64,000 nucleotides of DNA from a virus (taxonomy: Duplodnaviria; Caudoviricetes), in IMG/VR virus record IMGVR_UViG_2933705211_000004, positions 5,884 to 69,883 of that record; one strand, written 5' to 3'. Below are positions 21,801 through 59,423 of the stretch, one piece after another; within the stretch, counting starts at the first letter, position 1, and each line of letters begins with the position of its first letter. The notes below the pieces were generated by a model. It was not told the origin of the DNA. It worked only from the letters and a program-made list of their open reading frames with translations, and did no database searches. The position numbers and the translations under genes are program-made.

Positions 21801-22916
21801 CTGCGCGAACCGCTCGACTCCCTTGCCGACCCGTTCGGTGAACGGGCCGGAGGCCACCATGAAGTCGAGGGTGGCCCGGCCCAGACTCCCCATTGAGCGG
21901 GTGACACTGCCGAGGACCTTGGAGCTGGTACCGGCAACCGTCTGGAAGTCCCGGCGGAAGGGGCCGGTCTGCATGAACTCGGCGCCCCGCTTGACGAGGT
22001 TGCCCATCTGCCCGGCGGCATCGCCGAGGCTCGACGACAGGAGCGGGAACACCACCTTCGCGGCGGGCTTGACCTCCCCGACCAACTTGGAGAAGAAACG
22101 TTCCTGCACACCCTTGCGAACGCCCCGCCAGGCATCGCCGAGACCGACCACGTCCCGCGCGACCTTGCGGGCCGACGGGGACAACTCGTCGAGAGACTGC
22201 TTGAGCTGCGCCTGCTGGGACTTGGTGAGCTTGCCGCCGGCCGCAAGCGTCTGCTCCGCCTTGGCAGAGTTCTTCACCGCGTCCGTGAAGCCGCGGAACG
22301 CGAGGATCGTGCCGAACGCCGCGGTACCCGTGGCCGCGATCAGGCCGGGTATTGCGCCGAGCACGCCAACCGCTGGGGCCGCCGCGGACACCAGGGCGGT
22401 CAGCCCGGCGCCGTACTGGACGAGGGCGCCGACGGCAGGCTGGAGGACCGAGACGAGGGACCCGATGCCCAGCATGCGGATCACGCCGCGGCCCCGCCGG
22501 GGCATGCGCATCTGCACCGGCACGCTGACCGGGTTGCGGTCGGCTTCGTCCTGGGCCCCTCCGATCAGGCCACGCAGGCGGGACCGCAACCCGCCGCCAC
22601 GGGCATTGTCGCCGTCCGGGCGTACCGGGATCCGGACGTCCGTGCTGGCGAGGCGGCGCGCCATCGCGTCAACCTCGGCGCGGAACCGGTCCTTGCCGTC
22701 GACCTTGACCTTGATCTTGGCACTGACGCCCTTGGACGCCTCCTTGACGGCCGCCTCAAGCTTGTTGCGGAGGTCCTTGGCGGAGACCTTGACCTTGACC
22801 TTGACGGCCAGCCCCGCGGCGGCATCCTCGACCTTGGTGCGGAGCTCGCGCACGAACCCGGCGAGGTCGGCGACGACCGGCACGTCAAGCCGGCCAGCCT
22901 GCAGGCCCTCAGCCAC
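18867..22916 (-). CDS. tape measure protein (1349 aa)
   Basis: Ala/Gly-rich helical repeats; C-terminal ADGG and WAEPETDGEAYIPL; follows the chaperone. Confidence 0.9.
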   Translation of the reverse strand: MAEGLQAGRLDVPVVADLAGFVRELRTKVEDAAAGLAVKVKVKVSAKDLRNKLEAAVKEASKGVSAKIKVKVDGKDRFRAEVDAMARRLASTDVRIPVRPDGDNARGGGLRSRLRGLIGGAQDEADRNPVSVPVQMRMPRRGRGVIRMLGIGSLVSVLQPAVGALVQYGAGLTALVSAAAPAVGVLGAIPGLIAATGTAAFGTILAFRGFTDAVKNSAKAEQTLAAGGKLTKSQQAQLKQSLDELSPSARKVARDVVGLGDAWRGVRKGVQERFFSKLVGEVKPAAKVVFPLLSSSLGDAAGQMGNLVKRGAEFMQTGPFRRDFQTVAGTSSKVLGSVTRSMGSLGRATLDFMVASGPFTERVGKGVERFAQWTRASVAAGRETGSLARFLDHAGTKAKQLGRSTRDLVKGLGGVGRAAQDSGNALLDGFEGTMTRFNRWANSKVGQNAMKQFFSDASGSFHELNALVGDFVRGLGRAAKDGGITDLIRQIRTQLMPALGSVFTAIGQSIGPAVVAVVSNLATAFANLAGAGTGLGFLLTVFNGLLSGFNQLMRVVPGANTALSTLLGTMLALKVITMVTGMLRTFGASAVSSVSTARTSFNSLGTTMRGELGPGVMGPHITTWQRMGAAYRGAAADGGRLTGTLRGIGAANRVVSNAAGGMVAALGGPLGIAITGVTLALGFLATRQEAAARATQAHKERVNSLSQALSASGGVIDANVRAQAAQILQETELANGKGKLVDRMRTAGVTLGTLTNAYLGQGVTLKDLEKQLQATADSHRRSAKETAYGVQVWDDEGLAAIRAKEALSTVRGELEKGQAKQKELADAVNKSGSTGTGAYDRLQAAVQGFSDKTKSADERVESLKRAMDALTGNTESFHDATARLNQQMLTIDDTLAGSIDKAQGWGKALVDSDGFVNTATRNGQNLNSQLTDLRNSMLGVATRAQEAAEQGLMPMSEAMQKSQGAMENARAKAIALAQGMGLNATEAKALADQMGFIPATITTLMTTQGIPEATAGFLSLRGQLEGLGKGQSITVTAPTADARAQIEALGFTVTALPGGKNVSITAPTGGARADIGALAADIANAPNKKDVTVTAIINQAVGDLSSIQNQVAAMKGKEIAVTAPTATAQDALKDLGYKIQNVDSGGKTVRITAPTGTPLQQVQDIQSKINSLTGKEVNVVIRYSTLGTPYVSEHADGGIVKFADGGIRRMTGRVRAFANGAEQHIAQVARAGEMRLWAEPETDGEAYIPLASSKRRRSEEILAWVARYFGGTVVYPDRALRQYANGAMSLGQSGVRSSVSRPLASQGGGALVGGDLNLTMTGAPISPGEALNDALFELRRIRRGGAHAV

Positions 22917-25148: not shown

Positions 25149-25444
25149 GGCGCGCACTGTGCGGGCCTGCCCGGCTTATGTCGCGTCGTGCGCGAAGCCT
25201 TGAGCAGTTGACCCTCGCGTTGACCGGAAAGTTTGGCCACCTGGAGCTGCTCGCGCCGAATAGACGGCTAGGGCGCGGCTAGGGCCTGGCCGAGGGGTCT
25301 GGGTAGATCTGTTGCACGGGCCTTGGTTCGCATGTGCGAGGGCATGGCGACTCAGCCATGGGGGCGTGTTCGACGCGGGCTGTACGTCGCGGGGCGTTGA
25401 GTGGATCATGAGGCGTCATGTGCAGTCAGTTAGGGAGGTCAGGT

Positions 25445-26296
25445 ATGGGTTCGGTCGGTAGTCTCGGGGCGCCATCAGACACTTTGGCGAAGATCAGGGA
25501 CACGGGGTACATACAGATCGGGCATCGGGAAGGACTGTTCCCTCTCGGGTACTACGACCAGATGGGCCAGCCGGTCGGCTACGCGATCGACTTGGCGCTA
25601 CGGGTGGTGGAGGCGGCGAAGGCCGAGCTGGGCATCCCTGAGCTGAAGGTCCGCTATGTCCCAGCGACCCCGCAGAATCGAGTACAGCTGGTACAAAAGG
25701 GCATGGTGGACCTTGAGGCGGGATTGACCGCTCACACCATCGAGCGGGCGCAGCACGTTGACTTCTCCACCACGGCCCTGCTCTCTGATGTGCGTCTTCT
25801 GACCCGAGTCGACTCCCCGGTCAGCGACTGGTCAGAACTCAAAGGCACGGCTGTCGTGACCACGGCCGGGACAATGGGCGAGAGTGAAGCCAGGAGCCTG
25901 AACGACAAGCAGGGCCTGGGCATGACGATCATCGCTGCAAAGGACGCCCCTGGTGCGTTCCAGATGCTGGAGGGCGGTCGCGTCGTTGCGTGCATTGGCC
26001 GCGACGCCGTTCTGGCCGGCATGGCCCTCCGCGCCCGGCAGCCCCAGTCCTGGCGCGTCGTCGGCACGCCTCGGGCACGCGGGGCCATGGCCCTGAGCAT
26101 GCGCAAGCGTGACGACCAGTTCGGCATGCTGGTCAACCGCACTATCGCGGACCTCCAGCTCTCCGGCGAGGCCGAGAAGCTCTACAACAAGTGGTTCGCT
26201 TCGCCGTTGCCACCCAAGGGCCGCAGCCTCGACCTGCCCCTCAGTGACGAGATGCGGAAGCTGTACGCCGAACCCAACAGCACTCCACTCACCTGA
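25445..26296 (+). CDS. GltI-like glutamate/aspartate solute-binding protein without signal peptide (moron)
   Basis: TLAKIRDTG..IGHRE, TPQNR, IIAAKD, SGEAEKLYNKWF..PLPPK, LSDEM....EPN follow enterobacterial GltI closely. Confidence 0.85.
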   Translation: MGSVGSLGAPSDTLAKIRDTGYIQIGHREGLFPLGYYDQMGQPVGYAIDLALRVVEAAKAELGIPELKVRYVPATPQNRVQLVQKGMVDLEAGLTAHTIERAQHVDFSTTALLSDVRLLTRVDSPVSDWSELKGTAVVTTAGTMGESEARSLNDKQGLGMTIIAAKDAPGAFQMLEGGRVVACIGRDAVLAGMALRARQPQSWRVVGTPRARGAMALSMRKRDDQFGMLVNRTIADLQLSGEAEKLYNKWFASPLPPKGRSLDLPLSDEMRKLYAEPNSTPLT

Positions 26297-29673: not shown

Positions 29674-30975
29674 TCAGCCGGTGGGCTGAGTCCACGACCC
29701 GATAACGAAGGACTCCGGTCGGGGAATCTCCAGGGCAACCCGCTCATCGGCGCGGAACGTGATCAACCCCTTTTCGAAATTGTCCGCATTCTCGCTGGAG
29801 ACGGTTACCGAAACATTCTCTCGGTCGTGAAGCTGGGCACCCAGTCCGAAGGCGCCGACGAGGAAGTCAGTGTCGGCCATCGCCGTGGTTTCGACCACGT
29901 TCAGGCGCCACACCTTCTTCTCTGCTCCAACTGCGATCTGCAGCGCCACGCGGAACGCTCCAGTCTTGTCTTCTTCGACCTCGACGTGCTCCCACATGCT
30001 CGGGCTCAGCACGATTCCGGTCGGCTCGTACTCGGCCAGAAGCGCCTTGGTGATGCTGCGCCTGATCTGCACGCTGTACTGGTCGCTGGGGAGCCCCTTG
30101 TACTGCTGAACTCCCGGAGTATTATAAATTCCGGTCAGAGACTGGCCGTCGCCAACCGAATGCAGAAGGTCCCAGTCTTCCTGATACTTGACGCCCTCAA
30201 CCATGCGGGTGTTGATAAAGGTCTTGAGTCGCGGCTCGTCGCTCAGAATGTTTTTATGTGCGTCCAAAAGGTGCGCAATTTCGCTGACCGGATACATCAC
30301 CGGGACGAGCGAGAGCTTCGAGCGCGGCGCCCGCCCCCACGTATCGGTCTCGGCTCCTGTAGCAGGACTGGTGCCGTCGGCGGCGTAACGTTCCTTCACC
30401 TGCCGGGCGTTATTGGTCCAGCCGGTCTCACGCGCGCCATAGAGCACGGCCTGCTTCGTGGAGGACTTGGGGAACAGGTCCCGGATGTGGAACTTGCGAT
30501 AGGCCCGCTCGGCGATTCCCAGGTTCTGAGCCGAACCGAGAGTCTGGTGCGTCACCGTGCCGGCCGAGAGCGAGAAGATGCTCTTGCCTTCCATCTCGGC
30601 TCGCAGGTAAGGCCGGTCACGGAAGCCTGCCTGGGACGCGTTCTGGAAAGCGTCGGACTCGACGAACAGGTCGCCCAGCGACTTCTCCTCCATGGCGGCC
30701 TGCGGGGAGCGCCCGTAGTGCAGCCCCGCCGTAGGCGGGCTGTCGGGGGCATCGAGGTACTGCTTGATCTCGTGCCAGCCCTCGGCGTCGGCGATGAGCT
30801 GCTTGATTTCCATCGCGTCGGCGGACACCTTCTTGAAGGCGGTGGCCTGTTCGGTGGTGACGACGAAGCCGCCGTTGTCCTCGACCTTGAACGCCTGGCT
30901 GATCCGCTCGGCTTCGGCGGACTTCTCGGCGAGCTGGGTCTTGAGACTCTTGAGGAGGCTCTTGTTCTCAGCCAT
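29674..30975 (-). CDS. major capsid protein, HK97 fold
   Basis: Coiled-coil delta domain, KSLGDLFVES, IRDLFP, NFEKGLITFRADERVAL...PESFV. Confidence 0.95.
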   Translation of the reverse strand: MAENKSLLKSLKTQLAEKSAEAERISQAFKVEDNGGFVVTTEQATAFKKVSADAMEIKQLIADAEGWHEIKQYLDAPDSPPTAGLHYGRSPQAAMEEKSLGDLFVESDAFQNASQAGFRDRPYLRAEMEGKSIFSLSAGTVTHQTLGSAQNLGIAERAYRKFHIRDLFPKSSTKQAVLYGARETGWTNNARQVKERYAADGTSPATGAETDTWGRAPRSKLSLVPVMYPVSEIAHLLDAHKNILSDEPRLKTFINTRMVEGVKYQEDWDLLHSVGDGQSLTGIYNTPGVQQYKGLPSDQYSVQIRRSITKALLAEYEPTGIVLSPSMWEHVEVEEDKTGAFRVALQIAVGAEKKVWRLNVVETTAMADTDFLVGAFGLGAQLHDRENVSVTVSSENADNFEKGLITFRADERVALEIPRPESFVIGSWTQPTG

Positions 30976-31226: not shown

Positions 31227-33347
31227 CTACCCCTGGATCGCGGCGAGCTGGGCTTTTACCTCGTCGGCATCCAGACACACCGTGTCCTCACCTCCGCCCT
31301 CGTCCACGTCCTCACCGCCCTCGTCGTCGTCCGGCTCGGGGAGTTCGGGCAACGCGTCATGCGGTTCGTCCCACAGGTCGATGCCGCCGCCCGGGGGCGG
31401 AACCGGGGAGGGCTGCCCGCTCTCGTCCTGGTCGTCGTCGAGCGGCATGTCGAGGCCCTTGGACGCGAGTGCGGAGAGGAGTTCCCCGACGGTGGTCCGT
31501 ACGGGCTCCAACTGTTCGACGTCATCGGCGGCGTGGATGCGGACGGTGGCGTCGGCGAGAGCGCGGAGGGTCGGCTGTACAAGGCGGGTGTCCGTCGCCT
31601 CGTCGGTGGTGGCCTCGCGTGCCGGCCCCTGGTCGGGGATGACGACGGTGGTCAGCGCGACGGGCTGCGGGGTGCCGAGGGAAACTTCGGGCCCGGTCGT
31701 CTCGTACGGGACCGCATAGGTGACTGGCTCGGCACCGTGCTGGTGGACCGAGACGATTGTGCGGTCGGGATAGGTCGCCTCTACGCAGGCCCAGGTGTTG
31801 TCGTCGGCGGCGAGGAGGCGGCGTACGGCCTGCGTGACGCGCTCGCTGATCTGCTCGTAGGAGTCGGGGAGCGGCTGGATCTGCGGCACGGGGGCTCCGG
31901 TCGGGTCGGCGACGATGCGGGCTTTGGCTTCAAGGACGGCGGTGCGGGCACTCTTACTCTCGGCCGCGTGGGTGGCGGGATAGATCCCGAGAGCGTCGCG
32001 GTGCCTCAAGTTGCAGTAGCCCTTGGCGTTGTCGGGACTCATGTGGCGCCCTGCGACCGAGACGCACCGGTCGAAGTCCTCGGGGGTGCCCCAGGCGATA
32101 TGCGTGGCGCCTTCGCCGCGGACGTACCAGTGGCGGAGCTGCTCGGCATCGCCGCGATTCTTGTCGAGGCCGCCTGCGGCCTTGGCTTCCAGAACGGCGG
32201 CTCGGGCCGACTTGGCTTCCGGGCTCGCTCGCATTCCAAGATCATTTTTGTCCCATTGCGTGAGCCTGGTGCTGGGCGCGGCGGGTGGGCCGGTGAGACG
32301 GATAGGGGTGGCGTCTGGGCCGCGTACCACGTGCACCGTGTCGAAGGCGACTGGGGTCGCGGGCACGGGCGGCACGTCGTCGGGCAGGTCGTAGCCGAGG
32401 GTGACGTGCGGGCTGAAGCCGTGGCTGGTGCTCACCGCGCCGGACAGGGGCGAGGTGGCCAGTGACTGTGTGATGCGGTCGCGCAGTTCGTTCAGGCCCG
32501 GTATGTCGACGGGCACGAACACGGGCTCGCCGGCGCCCGAGTCGGGGAAGCGGCCGATGCCGCCGATCGTCCCGGAGAGCGGCTGAGCGTCCTGGAGCAC
32601 GTTGGCGACGATGCTGCTCAGGTCGTCGGGATGGCCAGGGAGTTGGTCTGCGTCGCCGAGGTAGGCGAGGGTGATGTGCAGGTCCCGGGCAGCCGTGCCA
32701 TCAGGGTGGACGATCCGCTGGGCGGCGTCCGGTGGCAGATAGAGGGCGACCATGACGCCTCGGCCCACCTGGACTTCGGCCGACTTGACGTCGAGGTACC
32801 CGCCGGACGCCGTCGTCTTGTGTTCCAGCTCGATGGCGCCGGGGTCGGACTTGACCTCCAGGCTCCGGGTCATTGGGTGGGCGCCGTGCAGCACCGGGGA
32901 GATCTCGTACAGGTCGAGCTTGTGGATCACACGGACGCCGTCGGAGCGCTTCGTCGCCCCGGAGGGCGGGACACGGTAGCCGATGGAGAACTGGGCCTCA
33001 CCGTGCTCGTGCCACTGGCGGACCTGCTCGTACACGTCCCGGCCACGCTGCGTACGCAAGTTGAACTGGATGGTCGCGACGAGCGCTCCGGCGGCGGCGG
33101 GCCAGTTCGGAATCTCGGCGAACCGGGCGTCGCCGGGCTGCCATTCCTCGATGTCCAGGACGACACCGATCGGCTTCTGCCACTCGTGGTGCCAGACCGT
33201 TTTCACGGGCCGGGTCGCCAGAGTATGGGCGAACGCACCGGGGACGATCAGGTCCGCGACCTCATCGACGACGCCAGTGACGGCGAAGATGGCCCGGCAG
33301 ATGCCCTTGCGGGACACCGGGGATCGGGACGTGGGGGCAGTCGGCAC
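31227..33347 (-). CDS. HK97-family prohead protease fused to 2H phosphoesterase and further domains
   Basis: DLIVPGAF, WHH...PIG, FSIGY, LYEISPV protease motifs; HITL and HVTL 2H motifs. Confidence 0.9.
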   Translation of the reverse strand: MPTAPTSRSPVSRKGICRAIFAVTGVVDEVADLIVPGAFAHTLATRPVKTVWHHEWQKPIGVVLDIEEWQPGDARFAEIPNWPAAAGALVATIQFNLRTQRGRDVYEQVRQWHEHGEAQFSIGYRVPPSGATKRSDGVRVIHKLDLYEISPVLHGAHPMTRSLEVKSDPGAIELEHKTTASGGYLDVKSAEVQVGRGVMVALYLPPDAAQRIVHPDGTAARDLHITLAYLGDADQLPGHPDDLSSIVANVLQDAQPLSGTIGGIGRFPDSGAGEPVFVPVDIPGLNELRDRITQSLATSPLSGAVSTSHGFSPHVTLGYDLPDDVPPVPATPVAFDTVHVVRGPDATPIRLTGPPAAPSTRLTQWDKNDLGMRASPEAKSARAAVLEAKAAGGLDKNRGDAEQLRHWYVRGEGATHIAWGTPEDFDRCVSVAGRHMSPDNAKGYCNLRHRDALGIYPATHAAESKSARTAVLEAKARIVADPTGAPVPQIQPLPDSYEQISERVTQAVRRLLAADDNTWACVEATYPDRTIVSVHQHGAEPVTYAVPYETTGPEVSLGTPQPVALTTVVIPDQGPAREATTDEATDTRLVQPTLRALADATVRIHAADDVEQLEPVRTTVGELLSALASKGLDMPLDDDQDESGQPSPVPPPGGGIDLWDEPHDALPELPEPDDDEGGEDVDEGGGEDTVCLDADEVKAQLAAIQG

Positions 33348-33406
33348 GGCGGGGAACCTCCGGCGGATGGACAGTAGGCCGCCGGGACCGTGCCGTGCCC
33401 GCCGGG

Positions 33407-33622
33407 CTACTGTCCTGTGCTCGCCTGCCCCGGCCCGGGAGCCGCCGCCTCGGCCGCGGTGCGGGCCTCCACCCATCCCCTGGTCCAGTAGCGCGCGCCG
33501 AACTGCTGCTCGGGGTCGGGGCTGTATTGGTCGTAGGGGCACGCGTCGGAGGGGTCCCCGGCGGCATGCGCGACCTTGCCCTCGTTGAGGAGCGCCAGAT
33601 AGGTCTGGCGGTTCAGGTCCAC
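33407..33622 (-). CDS. Rmf/CrpP-fold small protein
   Basis: EG..A...G.....CPY...W..GW pattern like ribosome modulation factor; AGGAG RBS. Confidence 0.65.
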   Translation of the reverse strand: MDLNRQTYLALLNEGKVAHAAGDPSDACPYDQYSPDPEQQFGARYWTRGWVEARTAAEAAAPGPGQASTGQ

Positions 33623-33633
33623 CGGTACGGCTC

Positions 33634-34266
33634 CTAACTCTGCCTCTGCTGGGGCGGGAACAACGGGTCCTGCCCGCCACGTTCGGCCGCCTGTTCTCCG
33701 CTGTCGCCCTGGGCGCGGCTGTGGGTGCGGGTCATCTGAGCATCGTCGACGTCGATGGCCCACACGTCCGGGTCGCTGTAGCGCCAGACCTGGCCGGTGG
33801 CATCCCGGACCCACCCGGTCAGTGTGCCGTCCGGCGCCTGATCGAGCCACGCCTCCTCCCCGTCGGCCCCCGTGTAGGCAGCGAACGCGTTTGCCGGGTC
33901 GGTCTCGTCGCCCTCGTCGTACATGTCGCCGGACCACGGGCGGGCATCGTCCTCTTCAGGGGGCGGCGCCTGCCCGCTGTCGTCGGCCGCTGGGTCGCTG
34001 CCGCTCTCTGGAGAGGCTGGCTCGGCATCCTGCGGGGCGCTCGGATCACCGGAGTTGGTCTCGGTGCCGTCGCTGTTGTCCTGAGCAGCGGGGCCCTGCT
34101 CTGCTTCGCCGCCGGTGCCGGGTGCTCCCGGCGGGGCGTCGGCCTCGATGTCCTCTGCCGAGCCCGCGTCCACTGTGTCCTCGGGCTTGGTGTCCTCGTC
34201 TTCATCGTCCACGAACGGCTTGCCGCCCTTGGGGAGTGCCTTGATGGCGAATCCGTATCTGGTCAC
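33634..34266 (-). CDS. acidic hypothetical head-module protein
   Basis: Leaderless GTG 7 nt from promoter -10; Trp-rich C-terminal domain. Confidence 0.75.
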   Translation of the reverse strand: MTRYGFAIKALPKGGKPFVDDEDEDTKPEDTVDAGSAEDIEADAPPGAPGTGGEAEQGPAAQDNSDGTETNSGDPSAPQDAEPASPESGSDPAADDSGQAPPPEEDDARPWSGDMYDEGDETDPANAFAAYTGADGEEAWLDQAPDGTLTGWVRDATGQVWRYSDPDVWAIDVDDAQMTRTHSRAQGDSGEQAAERGGQDPLFPPQQRQS

Positions 34267-34327
34267 GTGCCGCAGGGTGGGGTGGCCGTGGGCTTAATGT
34301 CCTGTGCCAACTGCGGTCACAAGATCA

Positions 34328-34603
34328 TCAATCCAATGGTGCAAGCCGGGCTGGGCCCTCCGTCCTCTCGCCCGACTCGACGACGTTGCTGTAACGACGA
34401 AGGACGGCGAGAACCGACTTCTCGTCATCGCCAATCACGGTGCGCAGGGGGCCTGCCGGCGTCAGCAGGATCGACTCGCCCGCGTGCAGCTCGACGAGGG
34501 CCGCCGCGCGGGCAGAGCCGATGACCGGCCGGTCCGGTTCCCCGGTGACCTGCACCTGGTAGGCGGACCCGTCGTCGAACCGGCCGGTGACGGTGAGCGT
34601 CAT
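34328..34603 (-). CDS. hypothetical protein coupled to the giant gene
   Basis: AAGGAG RBS immediately after the giant ORF stop. Confidence 0.65.
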   Translation of the reverse strand: MTLTVTGRFDDGSAYQVQVTGEPDRPVIGSARAAALVELHAGESILLTPAGPLRTVIGDDEKSVLAVLRRYSNVVESGERTEGPARLAPLD

Positions 34604-34614
34604 CGTCGTCTCCT

Positions 34615-37600
34615 TCATCGCGTGGCGAGCAGGCCGAGGAGGAACGCTCTCAAGTCGTCGTCCTCGTACCAGTCGCCGGTGAACATGGCCTGCAGAGATC
34701 GAGCGAGGCTGTCACCCGTGTCCGTCTGCGTCAGCTGCCGGTGCTGATGCAGGAGGCGCCCCAGGGCACTGTCGTCGAGCGTGCGGGCGCCGGGCCGCCC
34801 GGTGTGCGTACGGGTGAACCAGAACACTCGCTGTGCGGCGTCCAGGTCCGGGAGGTGACCGGCGAGGTGCTGCCCGAGGACGTATCCGGCCGTGCCCAGC
34901 CCCTCGTCATCGAGGTCGGCGATCGTGGCGCGGCGGGCGTCGGGCTCGTAGCGGGCTTCGTCGCCGTCCACGGCGGTGAGCCTGCGCCCGTCAGGCGTGG
35001 CGAGCCAGTCCCGGGGGATGAGGCGCTGCGCACCGGGTACGGCGCGCTCGGCGTCGGGGGTGGTGTCCGGGCTGAACACGATGCCCGCGTTGCCCTGGGG
35101 GCCGAGATCGCGGATGCCGGCCAGGGCCGCTGCGACGGCGTCGGGCACCGCGGCGGCATAGCGGGAGCGCAGCTCCTCCCACTCACGGCGGGCGGCCGAG
35201 GCCTCCATGCGGGCAGCCGCTATCTCCACCTCGACGTCCGGGTCCTGGATGGTGCTCGTCGTGCGCGCGGCCTGGAGGTTGAGCAGACGCCGCTCCGTTG
35301 CGGCCATGTAGTCGTCCGCGTGCTGGAGCGTGCCGTGCGGGTCGTGGCCGAAGTCGTCGCCGAGCGTGTCGGCCAGACGCCGGGTCACCTCCCGGTCGAC
35401 ATCTGCGCCGACCGACCGCAACGCGGCCATGTGCCGCAGCGCGGTGAGGCCAGGCCCGCCGTCGGCGGCGCGGTCAGGTATCCACCGGGTCTCGCTGGAG
35501 CGGCCGGGGAGCCTGCCCGCGGCGAGCTGCGTCCATGTCGTGGGCCTCCACCAGGAGACGCGACGAGACGCCTGCCCGAAACGGCCGCGTTCGGGCAGCA
35601 GGCCCGCCCACTGCGACACCCTCGCGGCCAGCGACTCGCCTTCGACGTCCGGAAGGTCGAGCGCGGCGTTCAGGCGCGCCAGACGGCGGGACTCCGGCCA
35701 GTCGCGGACCCGGCGCACCAAGCGGCGCAAGAACGCCTTCAGGCGGGAGATCCGGTCACGGCTGTTGTGCCACAGCTCGGCGATCTTCCGACCGACCGCC
35801 TTCACCAGCTCGATGAGGCGACGCCCGATGCTCCCCAACAGGGCGATTGCCTGGGCGAGGAAGCCGGGCTGCGGCCCGTTCCCCGGGGCTGTGGCGGCGG
35901 CGCGGCGGACGATGCGCTGAGCGGTGGCCTGGCGGGTGCCGTTGAGCTGCGCCGCCAGGAGCCGGGTCAGCGCGGCGGTGTCGGCCGGGTCCGTCCCGGT
36001 CTCGCCGAGCTGCCGCAGGAGCGAGGTCACCGCGTTGTTGACGTGGGTGGTGGCGTCGTCGGACCCATGGATGTCCGGCGCGCTACGACGACGCGACGAC
36101 GAGGAGGGATCGGCCTGGTCCGGGATGAGCCGCAGCAGGTCTGCCGCGCGCTGGGCCAGGTCCTCGTTGGACTCGCCGGGGAGGGGTTCGAGGTCGTTGA
36201 CGGTGCGCAGTGCGGCTCGGACGGTTCGCTCGTGCGCCTTCTCTCGGGCCCGGCGGAGGGCCTGTTGCACAGAGGCGCGGTCGCGGCCGGTGATGCCCGC
36301 GGCGGTCAGCGCGGCGTTCCCTTCCTGGCGGGCCGCGTTGCGGGCGTCGTGCAGGGCCTCGGGGGTCAGGCGCTGGGCGATCTGGTCGCGCAGCGCATGA
36401 ATCTCGCCGGGCGGTTCGGTCCCGGCCACGGCCTCGTCGATGATGCGCACGGCCACCGTACGGCTGTGATTCGAGACGATCTGGCGCCGCACTGACGCAA
36501 TCGGCGAGTTGGGGTCACGCGGGGCCGGAGCGGGCGCCGAGTCCGGGACGGTGCTGTCGGTGCTGACGGGAGCGGGCTCGGGGAGCTGCCACACGGGCAT
36601 GGCCGCGTGGACGAGGCGACGCTTCCACTGCCGGTTCTCGTCCTCCAGGAGGAGCCTGCGCACCCCGCCGGGGCCCTCCTCCACATCGAGGACTCGGTAG
36701 ACGTGGACCTCGTCGCCACGGCGTTCGTCGGGCATGGCGATGACGTCGCCTTCGCTGATCTGCGCGGCGTTGGAGGGGCGTGGGCGGTCGAGGCCCTCTG
36801 GCGCGGTGCGGCCGGCGGCGAGGTCGAGGTGGTCGGCGGCGCGTAGGGCAGCCCGCCCCTGGGGGGTGGACGGGTCCGCGTTCGCCCGGAGCTGCGCGGC
36901 GAGGGCAGCGGCCTGGTCCGGGGTGACAGGGAGGTCGGCGCCGAGCCGGGCGGCGGCCTGCTGCGCCTCGGGGGTGTCTTCGGGGGTGGTGCCGTTGTCG
37001 GCGATGGCGTCGCGGTCGGCCGGAGTGAGGTCCGGGTCGACCGTGGGGCCGGTGACGGGGTCGAGGGCAGGCAGCGGCTGGTGGACCGTGAGGTCGTCGG
37101 CGGCGCTGGGGGCGTCGTCCGGGCCAAGGTCGGGGGCTTCGCCGTTCGGCCCTTCGGCCTTGTGGACGACGGCCGTTGCGTCCATGTCGATGGTGCCGAG
37201 CTCGCCCGTCGTGGTGTCGGCGTAGTCGAAAGTGATGCGGTCGCTGTCGCGGTTGGTGTCCCGGATCTCCACTGTGGCCGGGGTGCCGTCGAGGTCGAGC
37301 ACGATGATGTCGCCCGTGGTGACCTCGTCGGCGGTCGGCTGGCTGATACCGGTGATGGGCGCGGTCGCGGGGGTGTCGTCGCGGACTTCGCCGACGACGC
37401 GGAGGTCCGCAGCGCTGCGGGTCACGGTCCCGTCAGCGGTGGTCACCGTGATGCGGTCGCCGTCGGTCTCGTCGACTGGGCCAAGGAGTGCACCACGGTC
37501 GTCGGCGACGACGTGGCCGGGCCGGATCCGCTGGCCCGTCGTGGTCCAGCCCTCGGGCCGGGCGCCCGTCGATTCGCTGATGTTCAGGGAGGACGGGGCG

Positions 37601-40600
37601 ACGTTGTTGTCCGTGTCGCCGTCGGCCCACCGTACGGACACGGTGGCGTCGGTGACCCCGGTGACGGTGCCTGCACGGTCGCCGTTCCCGGTCACCGCGG
37701 TGCCGGGGAAGAGACCGCGGCCGCGGGCGTCGGTGGCGATGGTGTCGGGCAGGGCACCGCTGGCCACAGCGCCTTGGGCACCGCTTGCCGGGGCGCCCGG
37801 GGCGGGGGCCTTCGGTGCTTCGGCGCGGGCTGCGCTGGCGTGGAGCGGGGTATAGACGACGCCCCGAGCGCCACTCTGGCCGTCGGGGTTCTCACCGATC
37901 GTCGTACGCCACATGTCCCCGGTGCGGCCCCGGCGGGTCACCGTGACCCGCTGTGGGGAGTCGAGGACGTATCCGGCGCGGGTCACGGCGCGGCCGCGCT
38001 GGTTGGTTCCGTCGATGCGTGCCATGTCGCCGGGCTGGAGCTGGTCGACGCTGGCCCAGTGAGCAGGCTGTCCGCCGATCGGCTCCGGCTCGGCGGCCGG
38101 CCGTTGGCGCCTTAGCGCGTCCTGGTCCGGCGCGGCTTCCCCTGCCGGCCGGACCGTCGTGGCATCCGAAGGAGCCGGTGCCTGCGGGGCGTTGGAGTCG
38201 GGGCGGCCCCCGGAGCGGGCGTTCTGGTCATTGTCCCGGCTGTTGCCGCTGTGCTCGCCGGGACGCGGCTTGCGTCGTACGACGCCCAGCTCCAGGCGCG
38301 CGTCATGCGGGCTGTCGGTCTGCCCGTCCGGACCGGTCCAGGTGATGTCGGCCGGGTAGCGGTAGTAGTCACGTGAGGCGAGCGCCTGCATGCCGGTGGG
38401 GCTCCAGACCCGTGACTGGTCGTCAGTGATGGTGCCCCGTGCGGTGCCGAGCGGGTGCGCGCCGCCGCGCAGGGAGTGGGCGGGGTCGACGGCCAGCGGG
38501 AAGCTGACTTCGTCCCCTGCCTGCAGCTCGGCGGGATTGGCGAGCACGGTGTAGCCGTCGGCCTCCTGCTGCTGGTGCCAGGCGTCTGCCTCCTGCCGCC
38601 ATGTCCGATGCTCGTCGGCGCGGGCCGCGTCGAACCGCCACTGGCCCTCGCGGCTCGGGTTCTGGGCCAGGACGCGGGCCATGGTCTCGGCGAGGCTTTC
38701 GCCGTCCGGGCCGCGGAACGTCCGGGCGCGCTCCATAGCGTCGGGAGCGTCCCACGGGAACGGGTTGCCGTCGGCGTCCCGAACCTCGGCTTCGAGGGTG
38801 TTCGCTGCGTGGAGCGCGTCCTTGAGCGTGCCGAGCCCGTCCCCGTGCGCCTGGAGCAGCGGCAGCAGACCGCCGGGGGTGGCCACGGTGAAGCGGCGGT
38901 TGTTCTCCTCGCCGTGCCGGGCCGAGCGGTTGCCGTGCACCAGGAGCCGACCACCACGCGAGAGCCGGGTGTGCTTGTCGTCGGCGATCTCACGCTGCTC
39001 GGCGGGGCTCGGCGGGCGGGTTCGGCTGCCTTCGTCGAGCGAGGAGGGGTCGAGCTGGCCGTTGCGCAGGTGCTCACGTACGGCGTTGAGGTTGGCGAAC
39101 CGGGGGGTGGCCGGGTCGTACGCGGCAGGGGCAGGGGCAGGGGCAGGGGCAGGGGCAAGCTCCGGCGCAGGTCCAGGGCTAACGCTGTTGCCCGGCTCGG
39201 GATCGGCGACGGTGTCCGGCGCGGGCGCGCCCTCACCCGCGACCATGTCCGAGGCACCCGCGTTCTGCCGCTGTGCCTCCTCATGCCGGTCGCGCTCGAC
39301 ACGCTCATCAGCGCGGCGCTGCTGCTTGAACTGGTTATAGGTGAGGCGCCCCCCGTTGTCGTCGAACCATTCGAGCAACTCCTCGCTGGCGTAGTCGCGC
39401 CACCGGCCGAACCGGGACAGGCTGCCGCCGGAGAACAGGTCACGCTCGCCGACGGGAGGGAGCCGCCTGCTGTTGCGGCTGAAGAAGTAGCCGTTGGTCG
39501 CATCAAGGGCAGCCGCGTACCGGGCCTCGTCGGCCTCCTGGAACTCGCGCTGCAGACGCTCCTCGCGCGACAGCGGTCGCCGGGTGACGTCCGTGTCGCC
39601 GAAGCCGAGAGCGGCATCCATTGCCTCGCCGCGCTGGCGGACTTCCTCGGCGCTGGTCGGAGCCGTGGCCGGGATGGCGTCGCGGACACGCTGATCAGCG
39701 TTGTCCCGGCGGTCCATCTCCGCCATGACCCTCATCTGGTCGCCTTCCGACAGGCCCTGCCCCCACGCTGCGGCAAGGTCGTGGTCGGACATGGCAGTCA
39801 GGTCGTCCGGCAGCGCGGTGAGCTTGGGCGCGGCCTCGGGGGTATCGGTGGATTCGGGGGCGGGTGCAGGGCTTTCGTGGTCTTGCTGGAAGGCGTCGCG
39901 GGCCGCGTGCAGGGCCTGTGGCAGGGGCCGCCCGTTGCGGTCGCGCCATCGGGCGATGGTGTCGGGGCTGAGCGGTTGGTGCCAGTCGAGTGGCTGCCCG
40001 TCGGCGTCAGTGATCTGCTCGAACCGGTCGGCGAGTTCGCGTGCCTCGTCGGCATCGCGGGCCGCGAAGGTGATCTTGCCGAGGCGGCCGCCGTTGCGGG
40101 ACTGCGCGAAGCGCCACTGGTCGGGGGCGTCGGGATCGCTCCAGGTGACCAGCCCGCCGCCGGAGGACAGGGTCACGGTCGGGTTGTCCGCGAGCTGGGC
40201 AAGGAACTCCCGCCGCTCAGCGGTGTTCTCCTCCGTGGTCAGTCCGGCACCACGGCGCCAGACGTCACGCAGCTCCTCGACGGTACGGGGATGCTCAGGC
40301 CGCGCTGCACCATCTGGTGCTCCGCGGTCTGCCGCGTCATCGTTTCCGGTGCGGTTGGACAGGTCCGGCAGATTCGGCAGGCCGCCCGTGGGCAGACCGG
40401 AGCCGCCCAGGCCGCCCGGCCCCGCGCCGTTGCCGCGGCCTCCACGCCGACGGCGACGGCGGCGGTCATTCTCGTCATCCCGGCTGTCGGTGCCGGCGTC
40501 TCCGGGGCGGGGCTCAGCCGGACCCTCGGGGGTGCCCGGGGACTGCGCGCCGTCCGGCCCCGTGCCCGGTGTGCCGTCCGGGCCCGCGCCGTTGGTGTCC

Positions 40601-43600
40601 TGGTCGCGGCGGCGCCGTTCGTCGCGGGGCTGCTCCTCGTCCGGTTCGCTGCGGGCGGGCCGCTCTGACTCCGGGGCGTCTTCGGGGGCAGCTGTCTCGC
40701 CATCCGGAGACGTGGTGCGGTCGCCGTCCTGCCTGCTCGGCTCACCCTCGTCGACGGGCGCGGAAGCGTCCGGCACCGGGGCCGTGGCATCGTCCACCGG
40801 GTCGGTGCGGTCGCGTGCCTGCTCGCCGTCACCAGACTGCTCGTTGTCGACGATCTCCTCGTCCGGATAGCGCAGGCGCAGCTCGGCGTCTCGGTTGTAG
40901 TAGCGCTCCTGGCCATCGTCGGTGACGATGCGGACCCGCCCGCGGCCGGTGAGCCGGGGCGGTTCGGCGATCGTGCGCGTACGGCCGTCCGCGTCGGTGT
41001 ACCGGTCTCCCGCTTCCAGGTCGGCAGGGTTACGCATCTGGACGGGGCGCAGGTCGCTGGTGTCGCGTCCCTCGTGGTCCGCGAACATGTCCGGGGTGCC
41101 GAACACGTCGTCGGGCCGGTCGAGCGGGTTGTCCGGATCGGCAATCTGGGGCGTGGGGGCCTGCGGCTCGTCGACGTCGAAGAGACCACCCTCGGGCGCG
41201 GCAGGCTCCGGCTTGGGCGCAGGCTTCGGGGTACGCCCGGCCCGGCGGTCCTTCTCGGCCTCCAGAACCGTCATGCGGGTGCGGTCGAGGCCGGTCAGCT
41301 CGCCGTCGGCCATCTCTCGTTCGACCAGGGCGACAATCTCGTCGGCGATCTCCTGGTCCGTCATAGCCGACGGCGCGCGGGTGCCTTCGGGGCGTATGGC
41401 ATCGAGCTGTTGGGCGACCTCGTCGCGGTCGAGGGTGACCGTGCCGTCGTCCGCCGCCGTGCTGTCCGTGTCGGGCGAGTTCGGCTCCTGGCTCGGGGTG
41501 CGCCGCTGCTCGGCAGGCGTGTCCTCGCCGTCGTCACCGGGCGGGGTAGAAATGGGCGGCAGATCCTGGCCGCCGTCATTGCCGCCGTCACCCGCCGCTG
41601 TGTTCCGAGCGAACGGCGTCTCATCAGCGGGGGCGTCGTCCGTGCGAAGCCCATCGAGCGTCCGGGAGACCTCACCGGCCGGCAGACGGTCCCGGTCTGC
41701 TTCCGACTGCTCGGGGTGCTCCGGGCGCTCGGGCTCGGGATGCTCGCGGTCGAAGTCCTCAAGCGTGAGCACTGAGTTGTCGACGGCTCCCTGGAGCGGT
41801 ACCCGAGCGGCGCGGCGCTTCTCGACGATCTCCTTGCGCTGCGCCTTGGTCAGCTTCTTGTCGAGGTCGTCCTCATCGATCTCGGGCAGCTTGTCGAGCT
41901 CGGCGACCCTGCCGACCACATCGTCCAGCAGGTTCGCGCGGGCCCGCGCGTGCTCGATCTGCGGGGTGAGGTCAGCTGCGGCCTGCGAGGACTGCAACAG
42001 GGCTATTTGCTCGTCGAGTTCGGGCAGGCGTGCCCGGTCAGCCTGCTGGAGTGCATCGGCCTTCTCCAGGGCGTTGGCCAGGCGGGTGATCAGGCTCGAA
42101 CCGGCGCCCTTCTTCCGCAGGTCGTCCGGGCCTCGCTCGAAGTCGGAGCGCGCGAGGTCAGGGAAGCCGACGTGCGCGACGAGCGCGCCGTCCGGGCGGC
42201 GTTCGGTGCGCACCCCGATGTCGAGGCCGCCGAACTGCCCCAGGATCTTCCACGGGCCGATGCCGTCGCGGTCGTGCTCCAGAAGCTGGGTGGTGACCTG
42301 CCGGTGCAGCGCCGCGGCGGCATCCGAGCGCTCGTTGTACGACAGGCTCCCAAGGCTCATGGCGAAGGTGTCGCGGACGTTGCGGATGCGGGGCAGGGCC
42401 TGGTCGCGGCGTGTGATGCCGTCGTGGGTGTCGGTGAGTTCCTGTTGCAGGTCGGCCAGGGCCTCGGTGCGGCGGACGCGTTCGGCGGCCTCGTTGTGCT
42501 GGTCGATCTCCAGGTCGCGCAGGGTCCGGCGGGCCTTCATGAGCTGGCTCATGTAGGGGTTGCCGCCGATCTCGGCTTCCATCGTCTCGTAGTCGGGGTA
42601 GTCGACGTCGAGTTCGGTGACGGTGTCGCGGGTGTCGCTGTCGGCCATCTCCGGGCGCTGGATGTCGATCAGGCCCTCCGCCTTGGAGGCGACGAATCCG
42701 GCTTTCCAGCCGTCGAGGCTGCCCTTGGTGGCGAAGATGTCGATCTCGACCTCGGGGTTCTGGTTGCCGTACCGCAGGATGCGGCCGTTGCGCTGTTCCA
42801 TCTGCGCGGCGCCCCAGTCGAGATCCACGTGCGTCAGCGACACCATGCGGTTCTGGGCGTTCATGCCGGTGCCGGCGATGCTGCTGGAGCCGATGAGGAC
42901 GGCTATGTCACCGTCGCGGGCACGGCGGAACAACTCGGCCAGTTCCTCGGGCTTGCCCGACTTCTTGTGGTCCTGGACGAAGGCGATCTTCTCGGCGGGA
43001 ATGCCGCCCTGGACCATGAGGTCGCGCAGCTCCGCGTAGGCGTCGAAGCTGCCCCTGTTGTCACCGCCCGGCACACCCTCGTTCAGGAAGATCATCTGGA
43101 GGGCGCCGGTGACGGGATGGTCCTCGTCGCTGCCGTAGTACGTCTTGTAGACGCGGTCCTTGTGGCGGTGGTATCGCTCGACGTGCTTGGCCGCGACCGC
43201 GCCCAGCTTGTTGCCCGCCGAGGCCTTCGGGTCGACGAGCCGGGGGTCCAGGGCGACGGAGGTGCCCTCGTTGGACACCGTGAGCATGTTGTCGTCGACC
43301 AGGTTGCCCTTGCGGTTCCGGATCTGCTGGGGCTCGCCGATGTGAATGGCGCGGCCGCGGCCGACGAGGGTCTTCAGCCGCTTGGCCTGGTCCTTGGTCG
43401 AGTCGACCAGGATCAGGTTGGGGCCGCCGTCCTTGACCCTGGGCCGGGGGATGCCGACGTCGTCGGCCCGCTTGGTATCGGCGACCAGGCCCCACATGGT
43501 CTTCATCGCGCGGCGGTTGTGGAACTCGGCGAACCGCTCCACGACCCGCAGACCGGACCCGTCAGGTGCGTTCTCGATGCGCAGCGTCTTGCGGCCGAAT

Positions 43601-46600: not shown

Positions 46601-49600
46601 GTGAACTTGCCGTACCGGGCGCCGCCCTGCTGGTAGCGCGGCTCTTTCTCATTCGGCTCGGCCGCGAACATGATCGGGACCGAGCCCCAGCCCGTCCAGC
46701 GGGCCAGGGTGCGCTTCTCCTGGTCAGTAGCCGGGCGGTTGTCCCGCTCCAGCCGCTTGAGGACCCGGATCGCCTCAACGTTTGCGGAAGCCCGCAGGAT
46801 CGGGCCCTTGGTCGCGGCATCCGCCAGGTCGGGCCTGAAGCGCGCTACATGTCGTACACCGCGTCCTTCATCGCCTGCAGATCCCGCATCTCCGGACTGA
46901 GCGTCTGCGTCTGCTCGGTCTGCGGCTCCGGTTCGGGCAGCAGATCCCGCAGCACCATCGCGGTCGCGTCCGCCCTGATCTGCTTGATCTGGCCCGCCCT
47001 CGACTCGTACTCCGCCGCGGTCGGCACCGTCTGCTCCAGCGCTTCCTCGGCCACCAGGATCGCCGTCTCGATCTCCCTGCCCTTGTTCAGGAAGAACGCC
47101 TCCGGGTCGGTCATCTCCGCCAGCTCCAGCGGCCGGTACTTCGTCCAGTGGTCCCTGGCCACCTGGCTGTAGATGCTCACCATCAGCCCCTTCGTCTGTT
47201 CCGAGAGCCGCACGCAGGGCTGCCTGCTGCGCCTCTATCTCCTGGCGGGAGATGACCTTGCGGTCGTCGTCCCCGCCATCCTTTCGTACTGCCGTGCGCT
47301 GCGCGTCGATCGTGTGCAGCGCAGCGTTGATGGAGGCCAGGCGCGCCTTGGCCCACGACCGGTCCGACGAGTCCAGGTCGCGGTCGCTGGACCGGAGCAT
47401 CATCTCGCGGGACAGATCCTCGGTGACCCGCTGGAACTCGGCGAGCAGCCCCTCGGGTACCTCCAGGTTGGCGCCCTTGCCGATCTTCCCGGTAATAGGG
47501 TTCGTGCCGTCCGACCAGCCGTAAGAGTGGCCCTTGAACAGGTCGTAGAGGGCACGGCGTTCCGGCGTCGCCGAGTTGAAGCTGTCCGCACGGCGCGAGG
47601 ACTTGTACAGCTCGACGAACATCTTCGGCACCCACACCCGGCGCACGGAGCCGTAGTGGCGCACCGACTCCGTTGCGGGATCGGAGTCGTAGCTGTCGAC
47701 GATCGCGGCCAAGGCCTCGGTCATGCTCGGGAAGGCACCCAGGATCCCGCCGAATCTCTGACGCTGCGCGTTCCAACCCGCTTTTTCGCCGCCCCCGTAC
47801 GGAGAGTCGTGGGTGCGGTAGCTGACCTTTCCGTAGTCGTTGCCATCGACCTTGATGGAAGAGCCGTAGCCGCTGCGGAGCGGGTCTTCAGGAGCGTCCG
47901 CCCGGCCGACCTTCTGCTCCCTGCCCTCGGCGCCGCGCCGGTTCTGCTCGTCGAACAAGGCCTTCAGCCGCTCATCCAACGCCTCACGTTCGCGGCCGCG
48001 AGCCTGGTGCTGGTTCTTGAACAGATCGCGGAACTCGTCCGTCAGCGCCTCGTCGCTCAGCCCGTCTGTCTCGGGCCGGTTGCGGTAGACGCTCGCCTTG
48101 CGGTCCTCACGCTCCTCGTAGACCGCACTGCGGCGAGCGGACAGGATCTCGTTCTGTTCCTTACCCAGTTGACGCAGCTTGACGGGCAAACGGAGAAACT
48201 CCGACTCCAGAGCCTCGTCGTCCAGCTCCTGGACCGCCGGCCGCTGCTCGATGTCACGGAGCTGCCGGATCTCCTGCTCGGCCTTCACGTCCTCCAGCCG
48301 CTCGGCCAGCTGGCCGGCCAGAGCCCGCTCAGGGTTGTCGTCCCCGCTCTCCGGCAGATGATTGGCCGACACCTGGTGCCCTTGGCGTCGGTCCTCCAAC
48401 TCCTTTGCCAGCGCAGTGAGTTCGGCGTCGCCCAGATCTGATGGCGTGCGGGATCGGTCGATGCGTTCGTTCGTGCGGCGCCGCCGGTCTTCGTACAGGG
48501 CCTGCTCATCGTCGGTGAGGAGATCACCCTGCCGAGACCCGTAAGTGCCCCGCTCCCGCTGGGACTCAACGATCGCGCCGTGCAACTCAGCGTCACTCAA
48601 CGCGGCGGCACGCTCGGCCGGACTCGACTCGGAGTCCTGCCCCCCGTCCCCGGCATCGTCGCTCCGGCTTGCGATACGGCGCCGGTCGAGTTCAGCCTCG
48701 ACCTTTTGGAGCGAGGCGCGCGCCTTCTGCCTTCGTGCAGGGGTCGTGGCCACCTGAGCATGGATCTTGAGGTTGTCGCGGTGCTCACGCAGGTCCGCGT
48801 CCGACATGGCCCGGAGTGTCTTGGCGTCCTCGTCGAGCTGCTCCCGCCGGGGGGTGCTGGTGCTGGAGTCCTCGTCGGTGAAGCGGACGTTGCGGCCCTG
48901 CCGGACGAATGCGGCGACGATGTCAGCGGCCTTGCGGTCGCGGGTCTCCGGCTTCCACTGGGTGCCGGTGACCCGGGCCTTCAGGATGGGAGACCAGGCC
49001 AGTCTTCCAGCGGCACTCACGGCCCGGTCGTCTCGTGCGTCGTTCTTGATCGTGCCGCGTACCGCGATGATGCGCTTGCCCTTGTGGGTGGTCCAGGCAA
49101 GGTGCACATGGTCGGCCTGTGCCGGGTCGGCAGTGGCCAGGTGATGCCGGGCAATGATCTGGTCGGCGATGTTCAGGTTGTTGCCGATGGTGATGTGGAC
49201 GCCGTCGACCGTGGCGTGCCGGTCGTTGTAGCCGCCGACGACGCTGGCGATGCGGGTGCTGTCCGGGCCGTACACGGTGACGGGCCCGGGATTCCAGGAG
49301 GTCGCCCAGTAGCCGTCTACGCCGTCAACCGGCTCGGCGTCTTCGGGCACGCCTGCCGGCCGCCCGTCAGGAGCGGGCGCGGGTGCCTCGTCCGGCTGGC
49401 CACCATCGTCTTCGGGCGCACCGTCCGGGACTGCACTGTCGCTGGGTGTGCTGCTGTCGGTCGAGGGAGCCGGATGCTCTGCCGTGTCCGTCTGCGGAGA
49501 GGTGGCCTCGTCATCCCCGAAGGGGCGGCGGCGCAGCGTCTCGGCAAGCCGGGCGGTGGCAATGCTGTGCTTCGGCGGGTGCTCCTGGTCCCACAAGGCA

Positions 49601-51009: not shown

Positions 51010-51016
51010 GGCGCGG

Positions 51017-51046
51017 ACCATGCAGGCCGCACGTGGTTAAGGTCGC
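51017..51046 (-). promoter_or_regulatory. late promoter motif (giant gene, leaderless)
   Basis: GCGACCT-N17-CATGGT, 7 nt before ATG 51009. Confidence 0.7.
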
Positions 51047-59190: not shown

Positions 59191-59366
59191 GGTGGGCTCT
59201 ACGGTCACGTGCTGACCTCTCCCATGAAGAACCGAAGCCCGCTCCAAGGGCCTGTTTACTGTGGGAGACGCGCCAGCCCTCGTCTTCGTTACGTCAAACG
59301 GGGCGGGTGAGGCGGGTGCCTTGCTCACCCGTTGATCAACTACACGAGGGGCTGCGCTGGCCTTGC

Positions 59367-59420: not shown

Positions 59421-59423
59421 ACG

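Follow-up and report, generated by a model that had tools for sequence, protein, structure and literature searches.

A short peptide common to the prohead protease tail and a giant protein in a Streptomyces phage head module: a possible procapsid-docking signal

A 19-residue peptide that forms the C-terminus of a prohead maturation protease recurs inside a giant protein encoded in the same 64,000-nucleotide stretch of a tailed-phage genome (IMG/VR record IMGVR_UViG_2933705211_000004, positions 5,884 to 69,883; this whole stretch is called the window below, and positions are counted from its first letter). The motif is exclusive to these two proteins, the prohead protease and the giant, both of which are encoded between the gene for a portal-MuF fusion and the gene for the major capsid protein. 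The analysis leans, by a little, towards the reading that the peptide is a procapsid-docking signal shared by the protease and the giant. Such a signal would be the simplest account because the peptide is short, tethered, helix-forming and exclusive to two head-module proteins that are otherwise unrelated. To our knowledge, the loading of very large proteins into phage heads is known for few cases, i.e., the T4 internal proteins, P1 DarB and N4 vRNAP.

The two genes and the copies of the motif within them are as follows, with gene identities here and below taken from Pfam and PHROGs, lengths in amino acid residues (aa), and scores in bits from a hidden Markov model (HMM) of the motif.

31227..33347, minus strand: prohead protease polyprotein, 706 aa; Pfam Peptidase_S78 and 2_5_RNA_ligase2; PHROGs 80, 14859 and 6439
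31230..31286, minus strand: C-terminal motif of the protease polyprotein, DTVCLDADEVKAQLAAIQG; 39.6 bits
34615..51021, minus strand: giant protein gene, 5468 aa; phrog_10089, 'DarB-like antirestriction', E 2e-252, aa 1280-2782
41389..41445, minus strand: strong internal copy in the giant protein, aa 3193-3211, GTVTLDRDEVAQQLDAIRP; 32.0 bits
41641..41697, minus strand: decayed upstream copy in the giant protein, aa 3109-3127, DRDRLPAGEVSRTLDGLRT; below 8 bits

The last 19 residues of the protease run directly into the stop codon (31227-31229), and the strong internal copy in the giant is identical to them at 11 of 19 positions, with an ungapped BLOSUM62 score of 43. Shuffling the giant or the query gave a mean score of 22.3 (standard deviation 3.6), and 43 was reached in 1/2000, 0/2000 and 0/2000 shuffles under three schemes and in 1/3000 in a further shuffle test of the pair. 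The shared peptide, which a first-pass annotation of the window had noticed, is thus real. The annotation had placed it correctly to within 1-6 bases; both genes lie on the minus strand and, for this reason, a plus-strand translation at the positions it gave is nonsense. A composition-adjusted BLASTP comparison of the protease with the giant did not return the motif pair among its matches, nor any other significant similarity; therefore, the signal is that of a short motif, not of domain homology.

The same annotation had pointed to a weaker second peptide in the ORF (open reading frame) of the giant, LPAGEVSRTLDGLR (aa 3113-3126, 41644-41685, minus strand). Taken alone it is not significant, its in-register score of 15 being within chance, but its position equals that of copies in relatives. 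Many relatives carry xDRVRLSAEEVSQTLxxIRP at the equivalent position, scoring 8-21 bits, and it is for this reason that DRDRLPAGEVSRTLDGLRT is counted as a decayed copy; its position also matches the first of three strong copies in the giants of two related loci (L002 and L003). Elsewhere in the giant, DRKVISRQEIEAQQAALRA (aa 1253-1271, 47209-47265, minus strand) comes second among the matches to the protease tail; it scores 30, and the probability that a shuffled giant holds any match of this kind is 0.038. It is kept in the consensus of the giants and lies directly ahead of a Gly/Asp/Arg-rich linker that precedes the methyltransferase; it could be an additional, highly diverged copy, or chance.

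The consensus of the motif is (D)TV(R/T)LDx(D)EVxx(Q)Lx(A)(I/L)(Q/R), and the positions common to both protein families are V3, L5, D/S6, D/E8, E9, V10, L14 and I/L/V17. A short extended stretch comes first and then an amphipathic helix, one face of which carries V10, L14 and I or L17. In the giants the motif ends in R-P, and the proteases stop one residue past the Q/R.

For searches, the HMM was built from 12 instances of the motif and copies were counted at 8 bits or above. All six frames of the window and of four related loci held 13 matches at 30-40 bits, namely 5 proteases and 8 giant copies, together with a half-copy at 10.6 bits in the giant of the Streptomyces phage Gilgamesh; everything else scored below 6 bits. 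When the host genome (9.17 Mb) was searched in all six frames, the two sites in the window were the only ones found (39.6 and 32.0 bits), the next match having 10.9 bits. Across these searches of the window, the related loci and the host genome, no copy was found in the capsid protein or the portal.

Homologues of the protease were collected by a search with its C-terminal third, which yielded 59 proteins including that of the window, and all named hosts among them are Streptomyces. The motif can be seen by eye in 59/59 and scores at least 8 bits in 57/59; in 54 of these 57 it is the exact C-terminus, and in the other three it is followed by 45, 7 and 1 residues. Related loci in IMG/VR were found with a 12-sequence capsid alignment, and among the relatives whose major capsid protein is 67-89% identical the protease tail reaches at least 8 bits in 12/13, the thirteenth (L023) having a diverged tail. 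A protease polyprotein also lies at 20067-21992 of another related locus (L001). The residues just ahead of the motif are conserved far less than the motif itself: in an alignment of 55 sequences, the mean column identity is 0.81 in the motif vs 0.42 in the preceding linker, which in these 55 homologues is 25-41 residues long and 49% D/E.

The protease gene starts at the GTG at 33347, which has GGAGG upstream and agrees with a database protein (P0006); an 817-aa ORF from 33680 over-extends the gene. An AlphaFold2 model of the 706-aa protein has a mean pLDDT (predicted local distance difference test) of 66 and the following layout, to which the linker is added from the alignment.

protease aa 14-167, minus strand: S78 protease domain, AlphaFold2 model
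protease aa 197-350, minus strand: 2H phosphoesterase domain, AlphaFold2 model
protease aa 381-479, minus strand: helical domain (phrog_6439), AlphaFold2 model
protease aa 497-557, minus strand: alpha/beta domain, AlphaFold2 model
protease aa 581-629, minus strand: two long helices, AlphaFold2 model
protease aa 632-692, minus strand: stretch with pLDDT below 50, AlphaFold2 model
protease aa 660-687, 31287..31370, minus strand: acidic, poorly conserved linker tethering the motif
protease aa 694-705, minus strand: terminal helix, pLDDT 52-59, undocked, AlphaFold2 model

A profile of the protease family, searched against PDB sequences, matched 2H phosphoesterases only. Most homologues have the 2H domain, which is replaced by a NUDIX domain in Gilgamesh gp52 and in two others (P0052 and P0053), so that the middle enzyme domain looks like an exchangeable cargo carried by the protease. 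On either side of the phrog_6439 domain there is one of two near-identical peptides, EAKSARAAVLEAKA and ESKSARTAVLEAKA (about 31950-32200, minus strand; about aa 495-590 of the protease ORF).

The giant has a mass of about 600 kDa and consists of a conserved N-terminal region of about 100 aa, a methyltransferase, an SNF2 helicase, the linker with the motif, and a C-terminal part of about 2250 aa. It combines a methyltransferase with a superfamily 2 (SF2) helicase, as DarB-like polyvalent proteins do (phrog_10089; phrog_11801, 'DNA methyltransferase'), and its Pfam matches are weak ones that lie close to the cut-offs or at them (SNF2-rel_dom, ResIII and Helicase_C). The strong copy had been described as lying just after the helicase, which is loose: the match to Helicase_C extends to aa 2752 and that to the DarB-like PHROG to about aa 3034, and the motif begins at aa 3193. 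A search with aa 3060-3330 gave 59 giant homologues of 3209-6321 aa. All 59 have the motif at 8 bits or more, in 102 copies (one copy in 24 proteins, two in 27 and three in 8), which in full-length giants fall at about aa 2950-3530; a copy at the position of the strong one is present in 59/59. In 58/59, a constant spacing separates the last copy from x-G-x-[KR]-A-P-S-[AS]-M and the conserved segment that comes next. The alignment of these fragments is meaningful from the motif onward only, as the aligner scattered the first 85 or so residues.

An AlphaFold2 model of aa 3090-3330 has the second half of the motif as a helix (aa 3199-3209, pLDDT 64-80) and the segment after it as a helical hairpin with a pLDDT of about 90. 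Foldseek found nothing for this model in the PDB at E <= 0.001, only generic helical hairpins. In the giants of L002 and L003, the three strong copies lie in acidic, disordered sequence, and copies 1 and 2 have disordered sequence on either side. The description of the surroundings as acidic linkers is right for what lies N-terminal of the motifs.

A match by chance or composition between two acidic low-complexity linkers was also considered, the pair being absent from the composition-adjusted BLASTP output and the weaker copy lying within chance. This explanation is refuted, to the point of having next to no probability left, by the shuffle tests, the genome-wide exclusivity, and the conservation in 59/59 proteases and 59/59 giants despite variable linkers; it was conservation in homologues that the first-pass annotation had named as a check. 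Further readings of the peptide were rejected on its conserved positions. A clamp-binding motif of the QLxLF type does not agree with a Q13 that is not conserved in the giants (Q in 57, T in 33 and A in 11 of 102 copies) nor with A at position 16, and ssrA-like or secretion-signal readings of the tail do not fit either.

The first-pass annotation had taken the peptide for a signal that loads the methylase-helicase. As a candidate targeting peptide it has been borne out in being conserved, tethered, exclusive and located where the HK97 tail is, but not in being tied to the methylase-helicase. The Gilgamesh giant (gp48, 4624 aa) and another giant of 4253 aa (G013) have no PHROG match, and these carry a half-copy and a full copy of 16.2 bits, respectively, without methylase-helicase; a protein with UvrD-type helicase domains (P0123) has kept the motif, as have two with no Pfam domain on record (P0115 and P0120). 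The N-terminal 100 or so residues and the C-terminal part are common to all giants, and because of this the enzymes resemble interchangeable insertions into a carrier that is itself conserved. Thus, the motif goes with the conserved backbone of the giant, not with the methylase-helicase. Among isolated phages, the C-terminal part of the giant was found only in Gilgamesh (2 records).

How a shared docking peptide might work can be set out as follows. The peptide would tether the protein that bears it to the inner side of the procapsid during assembly. In the protease, it would hang from the long acidic linker at the C-terminus, i.e., in the place of the HK97-type targeting tail; in the giant, one to three copies would be presented in a disordered stretch between the variable enzyme modules and the conserved C-terminal part. 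The giant would occupy the same docking site as the protease and be enclosed when the shell closes, and the number of copies would set the avidity. By analogy with HK97, the likeliest receptor is the capsid protein, either its delta domain or its inner face; the portal-MuF fusion or a small neighbouring protein is possible. After assembly, and this is speculative, the protease would cut the cargo free. Sites for this could be EAK-SAR and ESK-SAR in the protease and [KR]-APS in the giant, where K would be followed by S or A. We infer that the giant is in the virion, that the peptide binds and that cleavage follows.

A bolder form of the docking idea, which is credible without reaching an even chance, is that of a portable 19-residue tag, derived from the docking tail of the protease itself, which Gilgamesh-like Streptomyces phages would use as a general loading address for interchangeable anti-defence payloads. 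The number of copies (1-3) would tune loading, and the giant would compete with or mimic the protease at the docking site on the capsid. The payloads would be 2H or NUDIX domains on the protease, and methylase-helicase, UvrD-type or other modules in giants of 3,200-7,000 residues.

Perhaps, the peptide is instead a recognition or cleavage signal of the prohead protease, serving self-trimming and the cutting of the giant rather than loading; this has a small probability. The copies lie in linkers between domains, and [KR]-A-P-S stands 3-4 residues after the last copy in 58/59 giants. Peptides of the K-S type occur around the phrog_6439 domain of the protease (EAK-SARAAVLEAK and ESK-SARTAVLEAK), and the capsid protein has EEK-SLGDLF. 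These are candidate cut sites on their sequence, and cutting between K and S or A is plausible because of the EAK-SAR.AVLEAK repeats of the protease and the HK97-like EEK-SLG site of the capsid protein. Self-processing and the removal of targeting propeptides by the prohead protease are described for T4 and SPN3US (PMC7411985). However, the capsid protein, which is the obligatory substrate, carries no copy of the motif; the motif constitutes the last 19 residues of the protease, leaving nothing downstream to release; and the invariant positions form a helical hydrophobic pattern, not a P1/P1′ pair, the only K (position 11) being missing from the copies in the giants.

Another component inside the head could also be the partner, and here the neighbouring genes are of importance. 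On one side of the giant gene is that for the portal-MuF fusion, and on the other are those for the protease and the capsid protein, an arrangement also present in Gilgamesh:

51117-53594, minus strand: portal-MuF fusion, directly upstream of the giant gene; Pfam Phage_portal, E 3e-45, and Phage_Mu_F; phrog_2662
34328-34618, minus strand: 96-aa ORF
33634-34266, minus strand: acidic 210-aa ORF
33410-33622, minus strand: 71-aa RMF-like ORF; weak Pfam match to RMF, E 1.5e-4, below the curated cut-off
29674-30975, minus strand: major capsid protein, HK97 fold; Pfam Phage_capsid, E 4e-28; N-terminal delta-like domain of about 97 aa
further down from the capsid gene, minus strand: adaptor, tail tube and tape-measure genes

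The peptide might dock on the portal-MuF fusion, on the 210-aa protein (33634-34266) or on domains of the protease, or its copies might bind each other; taken together, these options are improbable, though they carry more weight than a cleavage signal does. In the self-binding version, the giant would ride on the protease, and the peptide would still be an encapsidation tag, with another receptor and another stoichiometry. Short amphipathic helices are generally able to self-associate. The giant gene comes directly after that for the portal-MuF fusion, two small conserved genes lie between the giant and protease genes, and MuF domains have been proposed as carriers of packaged effectors (PMC5512222). 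Against this, AlphaFold2 leaves the terminal helix of the protease undocked on every protease domain. The precedent of HK97 likewise puts the protease under the shell and not at the portal.

The most conserved region of the giant is its first 100 residues (50722-51021, minus strand), including NPALHPRDSKGRFIETGG, as judged from 36 aligned giants. They have no Pfam or PHROG match, and nowhere else in the 9.17 Mb genome is there a genuine match to their HPR..G[RK]F pattern. This N-terminus may be a second determinant of loading or ejection. The motif might act only after injection, on a common host factor or on the end of the phage DNA, and loading would then depend on other signals, such as this N-terminus. 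In keeping with this are the conservation of the N-terminal region, the swappable 2H or NUDIX domain on the protease, which resembles an injected effector, and the loading of P1 DarB via its N-terminus (PMC9024508). The position of the protease tail, in contrast, agrees with that of the assembly tail of HK97-type proteases. Nor do we know of any need of a prohead protease for a host partner, and action after injection has only a slim chance of being the explanation.

With distance from the window, the sequence link between protease tail and giant, which is strong in the window's own clade, fades. In one relative (G244), the protease ends in NRAVLDVDEVKAQLAALRT and the giant has DDAVTLNANDVEEELASLRPEG and GGTVTLERDRVEEDLRSIRPAG ahead of the same downstream segment; T2->A and I17->L are found in protease and giant alike, and this hints at covariation of the tail with its own giant. 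Two IMG/VR relatives, of 131.8 and 134.0 kb, are complete phage genomes, as they have direct terminal repeats. In the loci L016-L023 and L093-L097, the slot between portal-MuF and protease is occupied by giants of 3293, 5551, 5693, 6713 and 7058 aa (G401-G405), all of which end in ...DDDLRAF(L/V)LGLLATR. A loose regular expression gave 6 matches in distant giants and 0 on the reversed sequences.

Several observations weigh against a shared docking peptide. In a clade of IMG/VR relatives whose capsid proteins are 67-69% identical, the protease tails are kept (e.g., DKVRLDADEVKAMLAALTL) and the giants (5551-7058 aa) have only diverged copies (e.g., GETVLDPKQVSSDLAALRE). The DE before V10 is lost in the giants G402, G403 and G405, the loose regular expression finds no copy in that of G401, and the match of the protease tail to its own giant is within chance for G401-G405 (66/1000 shuffles at best). 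Since the copies of this distant clade are diverged, loading of the giant cannot depend on the motif everywhere. Gilgamesh, the group's only isolated phage, has the half-copy (10.6 bits) alone in its giant, and the C-termini of gp8-gp13 of Brevibacterium phage Cantare have no shared peptide by eye. The N-terminus of the giant is a serious alternative loading signal because P1 DarB is loaded via its first 30 residues, and the last copy in the giant may belong to a fold because of its fixed spacing to the confidently modelled hairpin. Aligning 16 Streptomyces-type with 26 HK97-type tails by hhalign gave a weak match of 9 columns (P 0.016, probability 2.8%), in which VKAxLAaL stands against the HK97-type helix. 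Moreover, a virion proteome for this phage group was not found in the literature.

In its wider context, the window contains the head genes of a Streptomyces (pro)phage that resembles Gilgamesh. It has a G+C content of 68% and is part of a 275.8 kb contig in the genome of 9.17 Mb; the head-and-tail module runs on the minus strand between about 57.9 kb and about 9.6 kb. The same gene order is found in the 129 kb phage Gilgamesh (gp46-gp53), whose gp46 is annotated as 'portal and MuF-like fusion protein' and whose syntenic gp51 also carries the label RMF (ribosome modulation factor). Within the minus-strand structural module there are two plus-strand genes, for an SBP_bac_3 solute-binding protein (25418-26296, E 4e-24) and an LppX_LprAFG-type lipoprotein (14587-15624, E 1e-9); these genes, for the family 3 solute-binding protein and the lipoprotein, look like morons. 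Just upstream of the portal gene are those for a pentapeptide-repeat protein (54936-55661, minus strand, E 1e-26) and a DUF5753 fragment (54615-54899, minus strand). On the plus strand, the element also encodes a full-length alpha subunit of DNA polymerase III of the DnaE type (59958-63653; PHP, NTPase, finger, HHH and OB domains), whose gene adjoins that of a multi-HTH protein (59307-59867).

If protease and giant do share a docking peptide, an address held in common with the maturation protease would make for a simple rule, open to test, that covers an entire group of Streptomyces phages and prophages. It would explain the swapping of unrelated enzyme modules in one carrier, would provide a small tag for the loading of foreign proteins into actinophage capsids, and would mean that the HK97 protease tail, so far a feature of a single protein, has been reused as a general signal.

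Of known systems, HK97 is closest with regard to the protease. As for HK97 gp4, the S78 protease is encoded just upstream of the gene for an HK97-fold capsid protein with an N-terminal delta-like domain, and its C-terminus has an acidic stretch and a short amphipathic helix. HK97 gp4 ends in ...RSESEGDGNEAQINALLQSIKSFPSNLGK, and Duda, Oh and Hendrix are said to have found in 2013 that its C-terminal part is the capsid-targeting determinant that brings the protease to proheads. The EEK-SLGDLF of the capsid protein lies about 97 residues from the N-terminus, where HK97 gp5 has NK-SLGSD, the site at which gp5 is cut to give its mature N-terminus. Unlike in gp4, the tail here ends a polyprotein of 706 aa, in which additional enzyme domains and a linker of 25-41 aa come before it; it has an added TVxLD element and is present in 1-3 copies inside a second, unrelated protein. 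Tails of a comparable kind are widespread: in 43/63 IMG/VR loci, defined by a capsid relative of 30-45% identity with an upstream ORF, the protease ends in [RKD][SCA][ED]S, acidic residues and an A/L-rich helix. These 43 small HK97-like proteases (of 63, in L028-L091) have RSES-G, acidic residues and an A/L-rich helix, often with a terminal L-P-x-F, and this family-wide RSES-G tail could be a targeting signal in its own right. The Streptomyces tail is similar to the HK97-type tail in place and build, a likeness in kind that does not establish homology.

Encapsulin cargo peptides are short, conserved, located behind a flexible linker and common to different cargo proteins encoded beside the gene for an HK97-fold shell. 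The same architecture is seen in the window, with a conserved short peptide and a disordered linker on non-homologous proteins encoded beside the shell gene. Encapsulins differ in being cellular compartments without portal, protease or DNA.

In T4, IPI-III and Alt have a capsid targeting sequence which binds inside the prohead and is later removed by the prohead protease (PMC7411985). The likeness is that of one short peptide common to unrelated proteins, those of T4 being packaged. The T4 signal, however, is an N-terminal propeptide of about 10-20 residues that is cleaved and that binds the scaffolding core, whereas the peptide of the window is C-terminal or internal (aa 3193-3211 of the giant) and shared with the protease, in a head of HK97 type without a separate scaffold gene.

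P1 DarB, which the first-pass annotation had invoked as a precedent, is indeed packaged in the virion, but an N-terminal signal of 30 residues suffices for this, there is no consensus among Dar proteins, and loading depends on Hdf, DarA and others (PMC9024508). Like DarB, the giant is a very large antirestriction-type protein with methyltransferase and helicase, encoded beside portal and protease genes. Unlike the DarB signal in the first 30 residues, the peptide here is internal, repeated and shared with the protease.

Polyvalent proteins have been proposed to be packaged and injected, with MuF domains as effector carriers, and fusions of 2H domains to proteins of the head have been described as well (Iyer et al. 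2017, PMC5512222). The giant resembles them as a multi-domain protein with DNA methylase and SNF2 helicase that is encoded with a portal-MuF gene. In that account, delivery is ascribed to MuF or portal fusion and to processing by a metallopeptidase, and a peptide common with the prohead protease does not appear in the available part of the paper (PMC5512222). A prohead-protease tail that recurs as internal repeats of a giant packaged-type protein was not found in the literature searched, with subscription journals mostly outside this search. Shared targeting peptides (in T4 and in encapsulin cargo) and packaged-type polyvalent proteins are already known, and what would be new is the sharing of a peptide between the tail of a protease and the repeats of a giant.

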